Assembly: GCA_037447435.1 (NCBI GenBank)
Contig: JBBIGR010000018.1
Span: 19,561-83,560 of the forward strand
Length of the DNA: 64,000 nt
Direction of reading: 5' to 3'
DNA from: Fibrobacteria bacterium
Lineage (GTDB): Bacteria > Fibrobacterota > Chitinivibrionia > Chitinivibrionales > FEN-1185
Below the pieces are notes generated by a model. The model had not been told where the DNA came from and did not search any database. It worked only from the letters and a program-made list of their open reading frames with translations. Made by a program: the position numbers and the translations under genes. Numbering within the stretch: the stretch's first letter is position 1; every line of letters begins with the position of its first letter. Shown here one piece after another: positions 46,748 through 55,021 of the stretch.

Positions 46748-49519
46748 TTATCTGCCGAGAAGAATTGGTTGTGGCTTTAGCCAGTTTACCGTAATTGGGC
46801 CTGTTCCAAGATCGCCAAACGCGCCTATTCCGCATCCCCAAAGACTACCGTCTTCTTTGAGCATTAAGGTATGCGCTTGTCCTACGGCGATGCTTTGCAC
46901 GCCAGAATCCACCTTAACCGGTGTATAATAAATATTAGTGTCTCCTGTACCAAGTTCGCCGCCATCATTTATTCCAAACCCCCAAACCGTACTGTCGGCT
47001 TTTAGTATAAAACTATAGTCGCAGCCGGCCGATACCTCTTTTACACCAGCCAGTACCTGTGTCGGAGTTAATTTAGTTACATCGGTATTATCTCCCAGTT
47101 CTCCATTGCTATTTAAGCCAGAAGCCCACAGAGAGCCATTTGTCTGGACAATAAGGCTGTGGTCCCACCCACCGGCAATACCTTTGACGTCAGTCATAAT
47201 TTGAATCGGGATATACCGGTCATTGATTGTTCCATCACCGACCTGGCCGGTCGCATTATATCCGAATGTCCATAAAGTTCCGTCGGTTTTCACTACGAGG
47301 TTATGCCAGGATTGTCCTTTTGCCAATGTTTTTACATTCGACATTATCAGTTCCGGCAATAAATGGCTGACAGTCGTATTGTCACCAAGTTCACCTATTT
47401 CATTATCGCCACAACCCCAAAGGGTGCCGTCTGTTTTCAACATAAGACTGAATTCGCCCCCTGCTCTCATGGATTGCACGTTGGACATTACTTGGACCGG
47501 AGTGTAACGATCGGTTGTTGTGCCGTCGCCTAACTGGCCATATAAATTTTCCCCGCAAGCCCATAATGTACCATCTATCTTTAAAAAAAGTGAATGTGAA
47601 ATTCCTGAAGACATTGCCTTAACTCCGGACATAATATGAACCGGATTTGTCCGGTTTTGTGTTGTGCCGTCGCCGAGTTGGCCGTATTCATTTGATCCCA
47701 AAGCCCAAAGGGCATTATCGGAAGTCAGAAAGAAAGTGGATACGTCACCAGCGGCTATGCTGGAAATTGAAGTGAAATGGATTGTATTGATATTAAATAA
47801 ATCGATGCTTTTATTACCAATAAATTTTATATACAACGAATGCTTACCAATTACTTTAGGGAAATTACAGAGGACATCTGCCCATGTCTGCCATCCGCCG
47901 GTTTGGGGAACAGCGCATGAGGCCAAAAGCGGGGAATTCGCGCTGTCGAGCCGAAGCTCTATTGAGCCGCCGTTACTGCCGGTTGCAATCCGGGCGCAAA
48001 ACACTGTTGCGCCGCCGATCCCGAAATTAACATTGTAGAAAACGAGGGCGTCCTGGTCTTGAATTCCGCTAACGTCAAGCCCTCCTTCAGAACAGGGCTC
48101 CGTGACAATTCCCGACATGGTACTAAATGATGCTGCGGGAATAGTGGCGAAAGCATCGAAACTGTCGTTGCAAACGGCAATCTTCGCTGTTCCGATCATT
48201 GTTTGCGCCGAAGCGTTAATGGTGAAGGGGCCACCAATGGTATTAAATGCGGTAAATAGACCATTGGTATCAATGGTGCCACCACTGCTTGCTGACCAAA
48301 CGAAATTCGGCTGCTGCAAAAGCGAATTTCCGAACTGGTCGGAATCTGCAATAGCAACGAATTGTTGTTGCGCATTTATGAGAATTCGCTGATAATCGGG
48401 TTTTATTGCTATCCCTCTTGCCCTTTGCTGTACTTGTAAGATGAGAGTATCGGCAATGCTGAGTCCTCCTTTATCTGTGATAACGACATGAAGGGGATAG
48501 GTTCCTGCTTTTGCAAAAGAGATTGTGGTTGTCTTGGCCGCGTTGGTTGCATTTATGCCGAATTGAACAGGCGTAACCGGTGTGCCGAGTACATCCCATG
48601 TATAGGTGAGATTCGATTCGCCGGCATCATCCGTACCAAGTACGCTAATGACAGTGGAAGTGGTTACAACAGGGTTTGATGTTGCAAAAGCCGGTTTTGC
48701 AATTTTCGGGGGAGTATTAACTGTGGTAACATTGACGGTAACGCATGAGCTAATAGTTTTTTTTGGAGGTTCTATTCCCCGAAGTGGTCTTTCATAGTTG
48801 AATCCGCGATCTGAAACTTTGACAACGAAAACATAGGTTCCTGCAATCGGAATTGTAGCTGATATTGTTTTTGAGACATTTGATCCGTTTTTTCCAAAAG
48901 TAACCGGGCCGGGGCCAGATATTTTTTTCCAGGCATATTTTAAATTCTGTTCGCCGCCGTCATCCGCAGCACTTACACTGAGCGTAGTTGTCGCTCCGGC
49001 ATTAATAGTGGCAGGCATTGCTATCGGTGTTGAAATGGTTGGAGCAGCGTTGAAGTAAATGCAATCGAAACGAGCAAATTCACCTGGAGGTGAATAAGTT
49101 CCTTGAAATGAAATAGTCCATCCTTTTTTAATAGTAACTCCTAAAAGTGTCCGGGATACTAGGTTGCAAACCGCCGGGACAGTGCTGCAAGACCCCTGTC
49201 GACTTGATTTCCAGAAGTCAACTCTGGCTCCATTTACAAAGACGGAAAACTCGCTGTTCCCGTCTTTTTCATCGAAATACCAGACTTTAATGTCGTATGA
49301 GCCATCGGGACCGCTGAACGCCCACTGGGCAGTGCCCGTGGCGTCTTTGTCTACTTTAATACATTTTCCGTCGGAAGCGAAAACCGAATTTTCCTTTGAG
49401 TAATTTGTGAGAGCCATTGTTTCGGCTTGAGTAAAAATTTGCGATCTTGCATCAAAAATTAAGAATAGCAGCAAGATAATGAGCCAGTTTTGATTTTTAT
49501 TGAATAGTATCATATTCAT
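46748..49519 (-). CDS. Secreted multidomain protein: CBM-like, two PKD/Ig-like, CBM6 and RCC1-like beta-propeller repeats
   Basis: Signal peptide; DDGGE/DDAGE..LxYxW repeats; CBM6-like EPCSEGG..SIELRLDS..TGGWQTW; about six LW..G.N..GQLGDGT repeats. Confidence 0.85.
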   Translation of the reverse strand: MNMILFNKNQNWLIILLLFLIFDARSQIFTQAETMALTNYSKENSVFASDGKCIKVDKDATGTAQWAFSGPDGSYDIKVWYFDEKDGNSEFSVFVNGARVDFWKSSRQGSCSTVPAVCNLVSRTLLGVTIKKGWTISFQGTYSPPGEFARFDCIYFNAAPTISTPIAMPATINAGATTTLSVSAADDGGEQNLKYAWKKISGPGPVTFGKNGSNVSKTISATIPIAGTYVFVVKVSDRGFNYERPLRGIEPPKKTISSCVTVNVTTVNTPPKIAKPAFATSNPVVTTSTVISVLGTDDAGESNLTYTWDVLGTPVTPVQFGINATNAAKTTTISFAKAGTYPLHVVITDKGGLSIADTLILQVQQRARGIAIKPDYQRILINAQQQFVAIADSDQFGNSLLQQPNFVWSASSGGTIDTNGLFTAFNTIGGPFTINASAQTMIGTAKIAVCNDSFDAFATIPAASFSTMSGIVTEPCSEGGLDVSGIQDQDALVFYNVNFGIGGATVFCARIATGSNGGSIELRLDSANSPLLASCAVPQTGGWQTWADVLCNFPKVIGKHSLYIKFIGNKSIDLFNINTIHFTSISSIAAGDVSTFFLTSDNALWALGSNEYGQLGDGTTQNRTNPVHIMSGVKAMSSGISHSLFLKIDGTLWACGENLYGQLGDGTTTDRYTPVQVMSNVQSMRAGGEFSLMLKTDGTLWGCGDNEIGELGDNTTVSHLLPELIMSNVKTLAKGQSWHNLVVKTDGTLWTFGYNATGQVGDGTINDRYIPIQIMTDVKGIAGGWDHSLIVQTNGSLWASGLNSNGELGDNTDVTKLTPTQVLAGVKEVSAGCDYSFILKADSTVWGFGINDGGELGTGDTNIYYTPVKVDSGVQSIAVGQAHTLMLKEDGSLWGCGIGAFGDLGTGPITVNWLKPQPILLGR

Positions 49520-49653: not shown

Positions 49654-49680
49654 TAAAGAAAATCCAGATTCTGCCGATGA
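49654..49680 (+). promoter_or_regulatory. Sigma-28 (FliA) promoter, distal
   Basis: TAAA-N15-GCCGATGA upstream of flagellin. Confidence 0.8.
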
Positions 49681-49737: not shown

Positions 49738-49764
49738 TGAAGTGCTTGGTAGGTTTGCCGATAA
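49738..49764 (+). promoter_or_regulatory. Sigma-28 (FliA) promoter, proximal
   Basis: TGAA-N15-GCCGATAA. Confidence 0.75.
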
Positions 49765-49848: not shown

Positions 49849-51042
49849 ATGAGAATCAATCACAATATTTCGGCAATGATTACACAAAGCTCGCTGTATC
49901 AAGTGGGCCAATCGATGCAGAAGTCATTGCAGAAACTGTCAACAGGACTCCGTATAAACTCCGCAGCAGATGATGCTGCAGGACTTGGCGTGTCCGAAAA
50001 TCTCAGAACTCAAGTTACCGGATTGCAGCAGGCAATGAGAAATACTCAAGACGCTATTTCAGTTTTAAATATTGCAGATGGCGCATTGAACGAACAAACC
50101 AGTATTCTCCAACGTATGCGTGAACTAACGGTGCAAGCAAAAAACGATACGTATACTAGTACCGAACGAGCTTACATGGGTCAAGAATTCGACTCGCTTT
50201 TTCATGAACTCGATAGAATTGCTGCATCGACCAATTATAACAAAATGCAGATTTTTGCAACCCCATTTATCAGTTCGAACGGTGGCAACACGGTTTATCC
50301 AGCCGACAATTTGAACGGGTCTCCGCATGAGTTGAGTGATGAACGTACTCTCTTTACTGATCCGAATAACAATGTGTTCGGAGCAAATGATTATGCCAGT
50401 TCCAACCATTTCAATTTTCTGGTTGGAGCAAATTATAATGCACAGGATGCTGCGGCTGCGAATAATGCAAGCGCTTCATGGAATCCCGGTGCCGGTGATA
50501 TGATAACCATGCAATTCGGGCAAATGGATACCAATGCATTATTCACACCTGCACCCGATTCGGCCGGACCAGCTACTGGCATACTCGAAACGCTCACTGC
50601 TGCGGGCAATAATCCGTTTGGCTGGGATACTACACAATCACCCGACCAAGACATTTCTATGGTAATTGCATCTCACACAGCATCTATTCAAGATAAGCTA
50701 AACTTGATTCTGAATTTGATTGACGGTGACCCAGTGGATCCAGAAATTGAAGCGGGTTTTTTTCAATTCGGCGCTGGTCCGGGAACCAATATTACGGGTT
50801 TGAGACGTGTAAACCAGATGCGGGCGAGCATCGGGGCCATGACAAACAGGCTTGAGCACGCAGTTAATAACGATCAAAACCAAATCACTAATCAACAATC
50901 CGCCGAATCTCAGATTCGAGATGTTGATTTTGCCAAAGAAACTGCAACATTCACGAGGAATCAGATTTTAACCCAATCGGCAACGGCAATGTTGTCGCAA
51001 GCTAATTCTGTTCCGCAAAGCGTGCTTCAGTTACTGAAATAA
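49849..51042 (+). CDS. fliC: Flagellin
   Basis: MRINHNISA..KLSTGLRINSAADDAAGL N-terminus; RASIGAMTNRLE..SQIRDVDFAKE..QSVLQLLK C-terminus. Confidence 0.97.
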   Translation: MRINHNISAMITQSSLYQVGQSMQKSLQKLSTGLRINSAADDAAGLGVSENLRTQVTGLQQAMRNTQDAISVLNIADGALNEQTSILQRMRELTVQAKNDTYTSTERAYMGQEFDSLFHELDRIAASTNYNKMQIFATPFISSNGGNTVYPADNLNGSPHELSDERTLFTDPNNNVFGANDYASSNHFNFLVGANYNAQDAAAANNASASWNPGAGDMITMQFGQMDTNALFTPAPDSAGPATGILETLTAAGNNPFGWDTTQSPDQDISMVIASHTASIQDKLNLILNLIDGDPVDPEIEAGFFQFGAGPGTNITGLRRVNQMRASIGAMTNRLEHAVNNDQNQITNQQSAESQIRDVDFAKETATFTRNQILTQSATAMLSQANSVPQSVLQLLK

Positions 51043-51142: not shown

Positions 51143-52000
51143 ATGATTTTCGATATTGCTTCGTTTAAAATTAAAGTTCTAGGCAAGCCTCGCAAGATTT
51201 TTGATTTTCCCGAATCGTTTTACAAAAAATTCCATCAATATCTATGCTCTAATTCAAGAAGCCCCTGCATTGATTTTACACTTGTTGTTATTCCCTTCGA
51301 ATCATTTTCGCTGCCGTCAAAAAGCCTCGAGAAACGCCAGCAGCACCTTTACAATGAAAATAAGGAAAAATTCATTATAAAATCTCCCGGCGCAATAGCA
51401 AGTGTCAATATGGCTTCAAAAACTATTTCCCTGGGCTTTAAAGGGAAAGTCACGAATAGAAGAAAAAATCTGATACTCATGGGGTTTGTTCGGCTTGCCG
51501 TTTCAATATGCGCAGTGCTCAAAGGCGGGCTGCCATTTCATTCCTCGGTTATTGCCTTTAACAAATATGGAATTGCTTTTTCCGGTCCTTCGGGTGCCGG
51601 CAAAACGACTATAGCGAAACTTCTTGCTGCTCCGGGGCAATTGTTAAACGATGAATTCAATGTCATCCTTCCTTTGGGAAAAAATGGATATCGAATTCAT
51701 TCGACACCTTTTACTCAATTTAAAACGTTAAAAAGTTGCAATAAAAAAAATCTTATTCTCCATACTATATTTTTTCTTGAAAAAAGCATGGCGAATTCAA
51801 TAGAAAACCTGGCTTTTAAAAACAAGTATATATCACTGTTGGGACAAACATATATTTTTCCCCTGTCGGACTTTTTTGGGAAAAAAATACTTGACAATGC
51901 TGAAAAAATATGCGGCAACGTTTCTTGCAAACGGCTGCATTTTAAAAACGATGAAACTGTCCGGTCCTTCATTTATGACTTTGCAAAGGACTTACTGTGA
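51143..52000 (+). CDS. HprK-related P-loop kinase (ScmC-like)
   Basis: LPFHSS, AFSGPSGAGKTT, LLNDE, HSTPF; start uncertain (GTG 51092 or ATG 51143). Confidence 0.8.
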   Translation: MIFDIASFKIKVLGKPRKIFDFPESFYKKFHQYLCSNSRSPCIDFTLVVIPFESFSLPSKSLEKRQQHLYNENKEKFIIKSPGAIASVNMASKTISLGFKGKVTNRRKNLILMGFVRLAVSICAVLKGGLPFHSSVIAFNKYGIAFSGPSGAGKTTIAKLLAAPGQLLNDEFNVILPLGKNGYRIHSTPFTQFKTLKSCNKKNLILHTIFFLEKSMANSIENLAFKNKYISLLGQTYIFPLSDFFGKKILDNAEKICGNVSCKRLHFKNDETVRSFIYDFAKDLL

Positions 52001-52263
52001 CCTACGAGATTACCTCCGATTTGTCGATAAAGGAAATTGCAGAAGAGCTGTTTGTTTACAACAGGAAAAACTCGACCATATATTCGTTCAACGGAAGCGG
52101 TGTTTTTATTTGGAAATTGGTTGCCCAGCATTTGCCGTTCGATGAAATCAGCAAGCGCTTATGCGGTGAATTCGATGTCACTGTTTCTGAGGCAGAGGCG
52201 GACGTTGCAGACTTTGTGAAAAACCTTCTTGAAAACGGTCTTATCACATTACTCCAGAAATAA
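51997..52263 (+). CDS. PqqD-family RiPP recognition element (RRE)
   Basis: 88 aa; IYSFNGSGVFIWKL..EISKRLCGEFDV..AEADVADFVKNLLENGLI; GTGA overlap with the kinase gene. Confidence 0.92.
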   Translation: MTYEITSDLSIKEIAEELFVYNRKNSTIYSFNGSGVFIWKLVAQHLPFDEISKRLCGEFDVTVSEAEADVADFVKNLLENGLITLLQK

Positions 52264-52267
52264 CGAT

Positions 52268-53320
52268 ATGGCTTCAGAAACAATAGCATTAAAGTTGGAT
52301 CGTATCTCGCGCAAGGGATATCCTACAAACGCAAGCATTGAAGTGACCGCCCGATGTAATGCGCATTGCGGTTATTGCTATTTGCAGGATTGTTCGTTTG
52401 AAGATCCGTCGATAGAGCAGTTATGCCTAGCTGTAAGAAAGCTTTCGGACAGCGGCATGTTTCATTTGCATGTCACTGGAGGAGAACCGTTTTTACGACC
52501 GGACATTCTTACACTCCTTTCTTTTGCATTCGACCTTGGCATTTTTCATTGCACTCTTTTTACGAATGGAACCCTTTTAAACGACGAACATCGAAATTTT
52601 ATTGTGCGGAACAGAGATTTTTTTCGTCATATACAAATGTCGATTTTTTCCCATAATCCTTCGGTAAACGACGCTTATTTAGGAGTTCCAGGCGCTTTTA
52701 ACGAGATACTTAAAAATGCCCTTTTCTTGAAAAATAACGGAATCAGGATATCTCTCGCCATGAGCATTTTAGATTTTAACGTTGACACATTTGAGGAATC
52801 CCGAAGGTTTTTCAGCGATAGGGGATTAACGCTACTTATTGCCAATTTTAAAACAATCGCCGGCCCCGTAATCGAAAAACATGTTGCAACCTCAACCACG
52901 AATTCTTTTTTCAAACGTTATTTTCAAAACTTGGACGCTGATATTTTGGGCAGATTAAAAATACAGATGAAAGAAGCATTGAAAATCCCTCCGCAAAATG
53001 ATGTTGAGCTTTGTCACGGCCGCTGGAACACTGTCTATATTAATACCAAAGGTGATATCGCACCGTGCATTTCCTTCAGAAACTTCAAGCTCGGAAATAT
53101 CTACGAAGAAAGATCGGTTCATGACATTTTACTAGCGGCTCCGGACTATCATTCTATTTGCGCTTTACATAAAAACGATATGAAAAAATGCGCCGCTTGC
53201 AAATTTTTCAATTTTTGCACTATTTGTCTTGGCTCGATTCATACTGAAAAAAAATCATTTCATGATGTCGATGAACAAATGTGCAATTTTGCTCATGCGC
53301 TTTTTGATATTCTTGATTAA
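52268..53320 (+). CDS. Radical SAM / SPASM-domain peptide maturase
   Basis: CNAHCGYC, TGGEPFLRPD, FTNGTL; SPASM-like LCHG..GDIAPC..LGNI..CAACKFFNFCTIC..MC. Confidence 0.93.
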   Translation: MASETIALKLDRISRKGYPTNASIEVTARCNAHCGYCYLQDCSFEDPSIEQLCLAVRKLSDSGMFHLHVTGGEPFLRPDILTLLSFAFDLGIFHCTLFTNGTLLNDEHRNFIVRNRDFFRHIQMSIFSHNPSVNDAYLGVPGAFNEILKNALFLKNNGIRISLAMSILDFNVDTFEESRRFFSDRGLTLLIANFKTIAGPVIEKHVATSTTNSFFKRYFQNLDADILGRLKIQMKEALKIPPQNDVELCHGRWNTVYINTKGDIAPCISFRNFKLGNIYEERSVHDILLAAPDYHSICALHKNDMKKCAACKFFNFCTICLGSIHTEKKSFHDVDEQMCNFAHALFDILD

Positions 53321-53326
53321 TCTTTT

Positions 53327-53770
53327 ATGAAATCTGAGGTGGTACGCTCTTTTTTCTTCGAAGGCCAAAGCAGGTTGTGTACTGTCTATGGAAATTCCAT
53401 GGAACCGTTTTTGTCCTTCGGAGAACAGGTTACGATCGTTCCTTGGGGCGGTAAGCTTAAGAAGGGGCATTGTTATGCTTTTATTACCGGGAGCAAACTG
53501 ACCATTCATCGGTTTATTGCTATGACGGGTAAAAAGCAAGCGCTATTTGCAGGGGACAACTGTCTGTTTTTAGATATTGTTGCAATATCGGATGTTATTG
53601 GAGAATATTCTTCTTGCCAAAGCCGCGGATTTCTAATTATAATTAACCTGATAAATTGTTTGTTTTTTGTTTTTATGATGCGTTCAGGTAAAACCTTAAG
53701 GTTTCATAAAACACGAAGGCGGATTATTAGGTTTATAATAAGATTTGCAAGAGAGAGGCGATTGAAATGA
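53327..53770 (+). CDS. S24/S26-family serine peptidase
   Basis: VYGNSMEPFL, TIHRF and AGDN motifs; hydrophobic C-terminal segment. Confidence 0.85.
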   Translation: MKSEVVRSFFFEGQSRLCTVYGNSMEPFLSFGEQVTIVPWGGKLKKGHCYAFITGSKLTIHRFIAMTGKKQALFAGDNCLFLDIVAISDVIGEYSSCQSRGFLIIINLINCLFFVFMMRSGKTLRFHKTRRRIIRFIIRFARERRLK

Positions 53771-53937
53771 AAAAAAAATATGAAAAGCCTGTTTTAATAG
53801 TTGAAGTCATGGCCCTAGACATGCTTCAAATGTCTTGCACGCATCACGGCGGTTTGCCGACAAAATTATCCGGTGTCAACGGAGTCTCGTGCCAATGTTG
53901 CGGCACCGGGCTTTACTATTCCGGCTCAACCGGATAG
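53767..53937 (+). CDS. Putative RiPP precursor peptide, 56 aa (absent from the ORF track)
   Basis: MKKKYEKPVLIVEVMALDMLQMSCTHHGGLPTKLSGVNGVSCQCCGTGLYYSGSTG*. ATGA overlap with the peptidase stop, GAGAGG upstream, YxxPxL leader motif, four Cys. Confidence 0.85.
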   Translation: MKKKYEKPVLIVEVMALDMLQMSCTHHGGLPTKLSGVNGVSCQCCGTGLYYSGSTG

Positions 53938-53951
53938 GTTAATTTTCTTTG

Positions 53952-54737
53952 TTACCTATGCGAACGCCGTTTTTTTCGGATAAGCTTTAGTGGAATGTTT
54001 GCAAAAGGTAATTCCAAAGCCAGCCGCCGCAACCAAACGGGCATTGATTCGTAGATGTTTCTGCTCGCCGTAAAAGCCAAAAATCGCGCATAATATGATG
54101 GCTTTTGTAAAGGAACATTCTCGGCTCTGACTTTTGAATAATGCAATAAAAACATATTAAAAAACTGCCGTATGCCCGTATGCGTTGCCAAATTCCAAAA
54201 CCGATTCCATGAAAACCCTTCCTGACTACTGAGAACTTCTATTTCTTGCCAAACCGTTGTTCGTATTTCGAACGGTATATGCACTAATTGGTGGCATAAA
54301 AAAATAATCAGACTGTCTTCGGGGCTTGGAAGGTGTAAAAACCTTTTTTGCACAACCGATCTTGAAAATAACGCCTCTGTCGGAAGGTGGAACCGTTCTG
54401 GATAATTAAGAAGAGTGTGGATTTCGACGAACGCGGTCGCTTCGAGGCAAGGCAGGAAGAAAGAAAATTCGAACGGCCAGTAATTCGGTTTTGTCCGCAC
54501 TCCCGTTACATTTTTAAAATACTCGATGACCTGCGGCATATCGGATTCTAAAACAAGGATGTCGATGTCGCACATTTTCCTGTCTGAAAAATGTCCTGCG
54601 CAGCCGGAAACGATGAGGTAGGCGCCTTTGATGGGCATGTAGTTGATTTGCAAATTGACAAAATGGTCGTGCAAAAGGCGCAGGGCTTCTGTAAAAAAAA
54701 ATTGCCGAAAGACCCATTCTTTATTCGGTTGCGCCAT
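53952..54737 (-). CDS. Nucleotidyltransferase family protein (NTP_transf_5-like)
   Basis: YMPIKGAYL, RKMCDIDILV, FVEIH, PSPED..LCH; convergent on the precursor gene with a 14-nt gap. Confidence 0.85.
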   Translation of the reverse strand: MAQPNKEWVFRQFFFTEALRLLHDHFVNLQINYMPIKGAYLIVSGCAGHFSDRKMCDIDILVLESDMPQVIEYFKNVTGVRTKPNYWPFEFSFFLPCLEATAFVEIHTLLNYPERFHLPTEALFSRSVVQKRFLHLPSPEDSLIIFLCHQLVHIPFEIRTTVWQEIEVLSSQEGFSWNRFWNLATHTGIRQFFNMFLLHYSKVRAENVPLQKPSYYARFLAFTASRNIYESMPVWLRRLALELPFANIPLKLIRKKRRSHR

Positions 54738-55021
54738 TAGGGCTTTCTCGAAGTTCCGGTTTCACCGCGAATGATCCGATAGGTTTGTGAAACCGATATT
54801 CTGAATTTCTTGGCGAGCTTTGTTCCCGAAACACCGGAATGATAGAGATGAAGGATTTCGACGTTTCTGGTTTGGTACTTATCGGGAACAGGGATTATGC
54901 CGTATTTTGAACGGAGTTGAAAGACTGCTTGACGAGTTATACCGAACAGCTTTCCGATCGCGTCATCGGTTTTATATTTTGTTTGTAATTTAACAAGCTG
55001 TTGCTTACTGATACGTGCCAT
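54737..55021 (-). CDS. Small protein with two HTH-like motifs
   Basis: DAIGKLFGITRQAVFQLR and GTKLAKKFRISVSQTYRII; 1-nt overlap with the NTase gene. Confidence 0.75.
   Translation of the reverse strand: MARISKQQLVKLQTKYKTDDAIGKLFGITRQAVFQLRSKYGIIPVPDKYQTRNVEILHLYHSGVSGTKLAKKFRISVSQTYRIIRGETGTSRKP

Follow-up and report, generated by a model that had tools for sequence, protein, structure and literature searches.

In the window, i.e. the whole 64,000-nucleotide stretch of DNA analyzed here, we found a 56-codon ORF that, to judge from its sequence and that of its relatives, is almost certainly a genuine and conserved precursor gene, situated in a cassette that is inherited together with one long flagellin. 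Taking the cassette as a whole, we give a probability of roughly 0.5 to the reading that its precursor peptide would be converted into a thioether-crosslinked phosphopeptide acting together with the long flagellin encoded upstream. The plus-strand genes are ordered as flagellin, HprK-like kinase, PqqD-type RiPP recognition element (RRE), radical SAM/SPASM enzyme, S24/S26 peptidase and precursor (Table 1). The ORF is conserved between genomes, the catalytic motifs of the enzymes are intact, and the gene set is co-inherited with the flagellin.

Table 1. Positions in the window of the cassette genes, the flagellin and its promoters, and the convergent neighbors.
Feature	Position	Strand	Matches and remarks
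Sigma-28-like promoter	49654..49680	+	TAAA-N15-GCCGATGA; motif upstream of flagellin
Second, weaker sigma-28-like promoter	49738-49764	+	
Long flagellin paralogue, 397 aa, no Cys	49849..51042	+	Pfam Flagellin_N/C
HprK-like (ScmC-like) kinase	51143..52000	+	TIGR04249, E 1.6e-10, 40.8 bits against a cut-off of 125
Stand-alone PqqD-type RRE	51997..52263	+	PF05402 above cut-off
Radical SAM/SPASM enzyme	52268..53320 (ORF opens at 52229)	+	PF04055 and PF13186
S24/S26 (archaeal signal peptidase I-type) peptidase	53327..53770	+	PF00717; TIGR02228, E 2.9e-5
Precursor peptide gene, 56 aa	53767..53937	+	Leader spanning roughly residues 1-22; core predicted at roughly 23-56
NTP_transf_5 nucleotidyltransferase, convergent	53952..54737	-	PF14907; KG...DxD motif intact
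Small HTH protein, gene 5' of the nucleotidyltransferase gene	54737..55021	-	HTH_23

The precursor gene

Read directly from the window, the precursor frame translates into 56 amino acids with Cys at positions 24, 42, 44 and 45. Its ATG (53767-69) overlaps the TGA of the peptidase gene (53768-70) as ATGA, and a GAGG is found at 53755-58, eight bases 5' of this ATG. The first-pass annotation had described just such a coupled peptide with these four Cys, and its coordinates and translation agree with ours.

An equivalent ORF is located at -90 to +160 nt of the peptidase stop in all of 39 pooled loci, namely the window, the 15 first loci, 11 from a later survey and 12 metagenome loci (the peptide was present in 16 metagenome loci, four of which were left out as repeats). 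Small YxxP ORFs beside homologous radical SAM genes, the check that had been proposed for the candidate, are thereby present after the peptidase throughout. A close radical SAM orthologue was identified in 16 out of 40 relatives; 15 of these loci reach beyond the peptidase, and a small YxxP ORF occurs there in every one. A profile built from 16 precursors furthermore found its match after the peptidase in 10 out of 10 held-out genomes of the order (E 2e-15 to 3e-5). The invariance of Tyr and Pro across the 39 peptides is a consequence of their selection by the YxxP pattern, and conservation is therefore read from unselected leader positions: the Glu and Lys of YEKP are kept in 29 and 34 peptides, respectively, Glu at Y+8 in 25, Leu at Y+15 in 20 and Ala at Y+17 in 25. 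When 13 close pairs were compared over leader codons 1-20, there were 130 third-position versus 25 second-position differences, with 82 synonymous and 61 non-synonymous codon changes.

In the window's genome, 45,292 frames hold an ORF of 35-90 aa, and a loose YxxPx-hydrophobic/Cys pattern, different from the one used in the pooled survey, was found in 37 of these. Y[EQ]KP, a motif derived partly from the same peptide, singled out the precursor alone among the 37. The precursor, kinase, RRE and peptidase genes are each single-copy in this genome, where no additional precursor copies were found. A second precursor-like frame was seen close to the nucleotidyltransferase gene in a related locus (L223:10494-10835).

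No Pfam or NCBIfam model matched the 56-aa precursor. The NCBIfam models gave only three matches among the 16 precursors (E 0.07-0.2), each in one member, a PDB search with the precursor profile returned matches at chance level only, and an Atlas search with the precursor yielded no confident match, the three clusters at 0.87-0.88 being leads only. The missing family model and Atlas match would suit an ORF that arose by chance where two genes converge, but with the ORF in 39 out of 39 loci, a purifying pattern at the codon level and a motif unique in its genome, such a chance origin appears extremely improbable.

Enzymes of the cassette

In the kinase, His133 and the P-loop residues S150, G153, K154 and T156 are invariant (15/15), and its predicted structure (pLDDT 89.9) has a fold that matches PEP carboxykinase and HPr kinase. 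The nearest solved relatives of the RRE in PDB are TbiB1, LppB (9x8z), TfuB1 and PbaB1, i.e. YxxP- and WxxP-binding RREs. Its N32, D69 and F73 align with N33, D70 and F74 of LppB, and among its relatives this pocket is kept to a high degree (Asp 15/15, Phe at least 90%, Asn 12/15). Together with the leader found in all 39 loci, these pocket residues are consistent with the earlier proposal of a RiPP precursor whose YxxPx-hydrophobic leader would be bound by the RRE.

The CxxxCxxC motif of the radical SAM enzyme and seven SPASM Cys are invariant in 16 out of 16 sequences. A seven-Cys SPASM set that leaves one iron site open is characteristic of enzymes that form thioethers, to which both AlbA and SkfB belong. 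Among the best 25 of 67 NCBIfam matches, no family was above its cut-off, and the matches were diffuse, with AlbA, GeoRSP and ScmE all far under theirs. The nearest solved sequence is SkfB (E 6e-30); PqqE and further SPASM enzymes, whose chemistry is mixed, are also among the nearest solved relatives. No relative was found when related loci were sought with the single radical SAM protein as query. A profile searched against 296 genomes of the phylum matched 27 genomes with E <1e-94, all in the order, the next match being at 1e-60.

Ser24, His61 and Asp77 of the peptidase are invariant (16/16), and its N-terminal hydropathy is low, with no N-terminal anchor; we predict it to be the leader peptidase. 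The NTP_transf_5 nucleotidyltransferase, which has an orthologue in 26 out of 29 cassette genomes and in 2 out of 52 non-cassette genomes of the order, is probably an accessory tailoring enzyme. The HTH gene lies near it in 10 out of 16 related loci and has three paralogues elsewhere in the window's genome, and its tie to the cassette is uncertain. The same full cassette occurs in L086. Three loci (L025, L027 and L028) have a second NTP_transf_5-like protein of about 600 aa between the precursor and the main nucleotidyltransferase gene, with a DUF4915 match in the case of L025. A sigma-70-like site (53614-53643, 11 of 12) was also noted within the peptidase gene, 124 nt 5' of the precursor; it was rejected as promoter evidence, such sites numbering 15 against 14.6 expected.

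Leader, core and predicted cleavage site

Cysteine makes up 11.5% of the core residues in the 39 precursors and occurs at none of 702 leader positions. It is the sole positionally conserved core residue: the first Cys is found at Y+18 to Y+20 in 33 precursors, and a Cys at Y+19 in 29. The number of Cys per peptide ranges from 2 to 10, and five peptides have none near the predicted cut. The core Cys, which the first-pass annotation had put forward, are borne out as the conserved feature. Its CxCC was rejected as a family motif in the survey of the 39 precursors; a late Cys pair is conserved in the form C-x1-4-C (36/39). The His-His and Tyr-Tyr pairs suggested as crosslink sites were likewise rejected, each being present in only two precursors.

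The family's L-x-A at Y+15 to Y+17 was read as the cut site, i.e. a conserved hydrophobic-x-Ala site, so that we infer cleavage of the window peptide at about Met22|Ser23, give or take two residues, with Met instead of Ala at the predicted -1 position. The leader/core boundary is thus more likely one residue before the one guessed earlier. The last residue is Ser in 13 of the 39 peptides versus 4.0 expected, and a Ser lies within the last three residues in 23 versus 10.7 expected, an enrichment that is overstated because the 39 sequences are related; the window peptide itself ends in Gly, with Ser52, Ser54 and Thr55 as candidate phosphate acceptors. The Ser bias is in line with the suggestion that C-terminal hydroxyls may serve the kinase. 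In paeninodin-type lasso peptides, the phosphosite is a C-terminal Ser.

The long flagellin and its promoter

The flagellin upstream of the kinase has about 105 extra residues in its central region, where the insert spans about residues 137-315; its five most similar paralogues in the genome are 279-291 aa long. Its length is 373-427 aa in 43 full copies, and the central inserts contain conserved residues in 43 relatives. The structure model (pLDDT 81.8) is predicted to have a flagellin fold with a center that matches no solved structure, and no YxxP leader was found at the N-terminus. The strict form of the promoter motif, which we take to be sigma-28-like from its consensus, occurs 13 times in the 10.1 Mb of the window's genome (both strands), and TAAA-N15-(G/T)CCGAT precedes 14 of the 22 linked flagellins whose 5' end is complete. 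Terminator-like hairpins with T-runs were found between flagellin and kinase in 12 out of 39 loci, with none in the window. Divergent from the flagellin, the window encodes a 923-aa protein with PKD, CBM6 and RCC1 repeats (46748-49519, minus strand), which has no counterpart at the same place in the related loci listed. In many loci, e.g. L022:2616-3146, the long flagellin is preceded by a divergent cytidylyltransferase-like gene, which is missing from this place in the window.

Co-inheritance of flagellin and cassette

In 23 of the 27 radical SAM loci, the same contig carries a flagellin immediately 5' of the cassette. As to the remaining four, the flagellin of G075 sits next to the kinase on a second contig, linkage in G079 is not judgeable, cassette and long flagellin are on separate contigs in G012, and in G006, where an unrelated gene follows the long flagellin, they are probably unlinked. 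A profile of the flagellin center matched 27 of the order's 81 genomes; 25 of these are shared with the radical SAM set, and the four mismatches are all situated at contig ends. In two of the mismatches (G007 and G074) the kinase is preceded by a flagellin that is cut short, its type being unreadable in G074; the cassette of G061 is spread over three contigs, and in G032, where the flagellin is followed by the kinase, a radical SAM orthologue was not found. Flagellin and cassette thus occur together in 29 of the 81 genomes (four across contig breaks) and are both missing from 52. Other flagellins are present in 43 of these 52, and the radical SAM orthologue is absent from all nine flagellin-free genomes of the order.

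The reverse test gave a corresponding picture: the flagellin center led to 30 metagenome loci, nine of which end within 332 nt, and all 21 loci with 600 nt or more downstream, some of them repeats, have the kinase. Flagellin and cassette stay adjacent even where enzyme identity is down to about 30%, and across seven families. Four out of five congeners (G001, G002, G004 and G005) have neither a flagellin match nor the cassette.

Related cassettes

Outside the order, the arrangement kinase-RRE-radical SAM-S26-peptide-flagellin was found in G290, where a stop splits the downstream flagellin (L076:947-2047) into 249 and 98 aa. In G296 and G297 (2/87 genomes in their phylum), the genes run RRE-radical SAM-peptide-S26-kinase-flagellin, with adjoining flagellins of 654 and 724 aa (L090:9029-10993 and L231:6448-8622) and radical SAM enzymes that fall outside the clade of the order in a quick tree. 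PD40 beta-propeller repeats were detected in the 654-aa flagellin of G296, the copy to which the domain scan applies. No flagellin was in view in 16 out of 17 distant loci with a kinase match. In the flagellin-free genome G013, a 723-aa frame with similarity to kinase, S26 peptidase and NTP_transf_5 faces an RRE (L238:74-2242). As noted at L031:6737-8275, the cassette of G012 has a GT2 gene upstream and an ABC-2 transporter beyond the nucleotidyltransferase gene.

Flagellin-free kinase-RRE-radical SAM cassettes, most with a visible YxxP/Cys peptide, were also seen in other lineages (L087, L088, L083, L097, L115 and L126). Short Cys peptides with a YKKP leader (L085:5541-5747 and L078:7463-7600) accompany radical SAM enzymes from the second tier of matches in the phylum and belong to a different system.

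Proposed mechanism and alternatives

In the reading we prefer, transcription from the sigma-28-like promoter would read through into the cassette. By analogy with LppB, the RRE would likely hold the YEKP leader, the radical SAM enzyme likely closes core Cys into thioether rings and the kinase likely phosphorylates a Ser near the C-terminus. For the S26 peptidase, we predict removal of about 22 residues in the cytoplasm, with a cut near Met22|Ser23, and the nucleotidyltransferase may cap the phosphate. The product likely acts together with the long flagellin encoded just upstream. Leader binding, RRE-dependent cleavage and phosphorylation are likely by comparison with LPP, the closest known family (see below), and the thioether chemistry, the C-terminal phosphosite, the capping, the read-through and the flagellar role are what we infer. 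As the gene set is inherited with one long flagellin, the product may act on the flagellum or in partnership with it. A late flagellar promoter lies upstream and an exporter was not found in the window's locus, so that the product likely serves the long flagellin.

Overall, the gene neighborhoods make a functional link between cassette and long flagellin probable. The peptide could also mature as proposed with the flagellin as a mere neighbor or promoter donor, the product then being a diffusible signal or antimicrobial without filament contact. Since neighboring genes come and go together, co-occurrence alone is possible without any functional link. The flagellin-free view in 16 of the 17 distant loci, the unlinked arrangement in G012 and probably G006, the kinase-S26-NTP fusion with its RRE in flagellin-free G013, the hairpins between flagellin and kinase in 12 loci and the broken flagellin of G290 all agree with such a neighbor role. 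So does the hypervariable core, such cores being typical of conflict or signaling peptides. An indirect effect on motility is moreover described for archaeal lanthipeptides in the accessible part of 10.1101/2024.10.07.616454. However, the adjacency persists at low enzyme identity across the seven families, neither partner occurs alone in the 81 genomes, even where the two are unlinked as in G012, an adjacent flagellin recurs in three gene orders, with the G296 and G297 enzymes outside the clade of the order (quick tree), and an exporter was not found in the window's locus; on balance, we regard the neighbor explanation as unlikely. It is very unlikely that the enzymes act on the flagellin itself with the peptide as adaptor or cofactor: the close association with a single flagellin whose insert residues are conserved would be explained, but this flagellin has no Cys and no N-terminal YxxP leader, and the RRE, the peptidase and the leader fit a peptide-directed system.

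Concerning the chemistry, the sequences incline us toward thioethers at the core Cys. If the radical SAM enzyme instead performed aromatic C-C cross-linking or epimerization, with the Cys forming disulfides or binding metal, this would agree with the aromatic residue found somewhere in all 39 cores, with CxxC or CxC in 25 of them (a spacing suited to metal binding), with the diffuse family matches, all far under cut-off among the best 25 of 67, and with the mixed chemistry of the nearest solved relatives (SkfB, PqqE and other SPASM enzymes). Yet the precursor alignment has no conserved aromatic position, His-His and Tyr-Tyr are as rare as stated above, Cys alone is positionally conserved in the core, and the top family and structure matches, AlbA and SkfB, are thioether formers, which makes this chemistry rather unlikely. 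Returning to the thioether-crosslinked phosphopeptide, a doubtful but more specific version is that it ornaments the flagellar filament post-translationally. It would leave by the flagellar export channel, dock on the inserted domain of the dedicated flagellin, or be joined to it via the nucleotidyltransferase, and form a hypervariable peptide coat, the beta-propeller insert of G296/G297 possibly playing the same part. If true, this kind of flagellin decoration would be without match in the literature searched.

Comparison with known systems

With sacti- and ranthipeptides (AlbA, SkfB, PapB, CteB), the cassette shares a Cys-rich precursor encoded next to an intact radical SAM/SPASM enzyme. The scores against their families are, however, low among the best 25 of 67 matches (AlbA 81 versus 850, PapB 59 versus 340, StsB and SkfB far under cut-off), the RRE is separate here, and a kinase, an S26 peptidase and an NTP transferase are added. 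In a different system, a SPASM enzyme forms thioethers in a Cys-rich substrate, according to the available text of PMC13692751. SynChlorMet (TIGR04248-04251) and GeoRSP resemble the cassette in that ScmC is the best NCBIfam match of the kinase, with ScmD and ScmE among the best for RRE and radical SAM enzyme, but scores stay below the cut-offs (ScmC 40.8/125, ScmD 32.9/100, ScmE 74.7/400) and there is only one radical SAM enzyme here; no paper naming SynChlorMet was found in the accessible literature. Paeninodin-type lasso peptides have the same kinase, RRE and nucleotidyltransferase (PMC13381572, available text). A lasso peptide was nevertheless rejected, as Pfam detected no macrolactam cyclase C and no B2 peptidase among nine locus proteins, Asp/Glu is absent at core positions 7-9, and the window core, with no Asp or Glu after residue 18, lacks a macrolactam acceptor.

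The closest known family is LPP, the linear polyphosphorylated peptides of Bacillota (Popov et al. 2026). This family and the link to the long flagellin are what the present analysis adds to the first-pass annotation. A radical SAM-extended LPP-like cassette with a flagellin link is without description in the literature found, which largely excludes subscription papers, and the main text of PMC13381572 has no match for radical SAM, rSAM, flagell or Fibrobacter; the kind of toolkit is already known. The LPP authors (PMC13381572, available text) regard the role of RRE-dependent phosphopeptides (LPP, paeninodin) as unsettled, and with a radical SAM-extended phosphopeptide toolkit tied to a single flagellin paralogue such a role becomes testable. 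The 39 precursors in addition provide natural variants for a radical SAM subfamily without a family model.

As described in the available text of PMC13381572, the LPP gene set is lppA-K-B-S-D-N, LppB holds the leader Tyr via D70 and the Pro via F74 and N33, LppS (S29/H68/D93) cleaves only with LppB, after a hydrophobic-x-small site (F-3, E-2, T-1), and LppK phosphorylates core Ser3, whereas no activity was seen for LppN. Measured against that text, the two systems share the stand-alone RRE with Tyr-binding Asp, Pro-stacking Phe and Asn (N32/D69/F73 here), a signal-peptidase-type enzyme with Ser/His/Asp (S24/H61/D77, matched to LppS by residue type), an HprK-like kinase and an NTP transferase, whose gene is convergent here and was not found in three of the 29 cassette genomes, as well as a YxxP leader, a variable core and no lasso cyclase. 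By contrast, only YxxPx-hydrophobic is common to the leaders, the consensus YxxPxVLxHQxIxFETxxS being absent and the tail reading I-x-x-E...L-x-A-x-C instead of HQxIxFETxxS, and the predicted cut lies two residues farther from Tyr than in LppA. There is no Ser3 phosphosite (Ser at Y+18 to Y+21 in 2, 2, 6 and 3 of 39) and no MsbA-like exporter among the genes of the window's locus; a crude pattern, which missed the divergent ABC ATPase in L031, gave an exporter in 0 out of 42 loci. A radical SAM/SPASM enzyme is added and the core is Cys-rich, and the cassette is linked to a flagellin, LPP to capsule loci. With pocket and cut residues kept, Ser3, leader tail and exporter missing and a radical SAM enzyme added, we consider it very likely that leaders are bound and cut here in an LPP-like manner by a system that is itself not LPP, and its peptidase is probably, by this analogy, a second case of an RRE-dependent leader peptidase of the signal-peptidase type.
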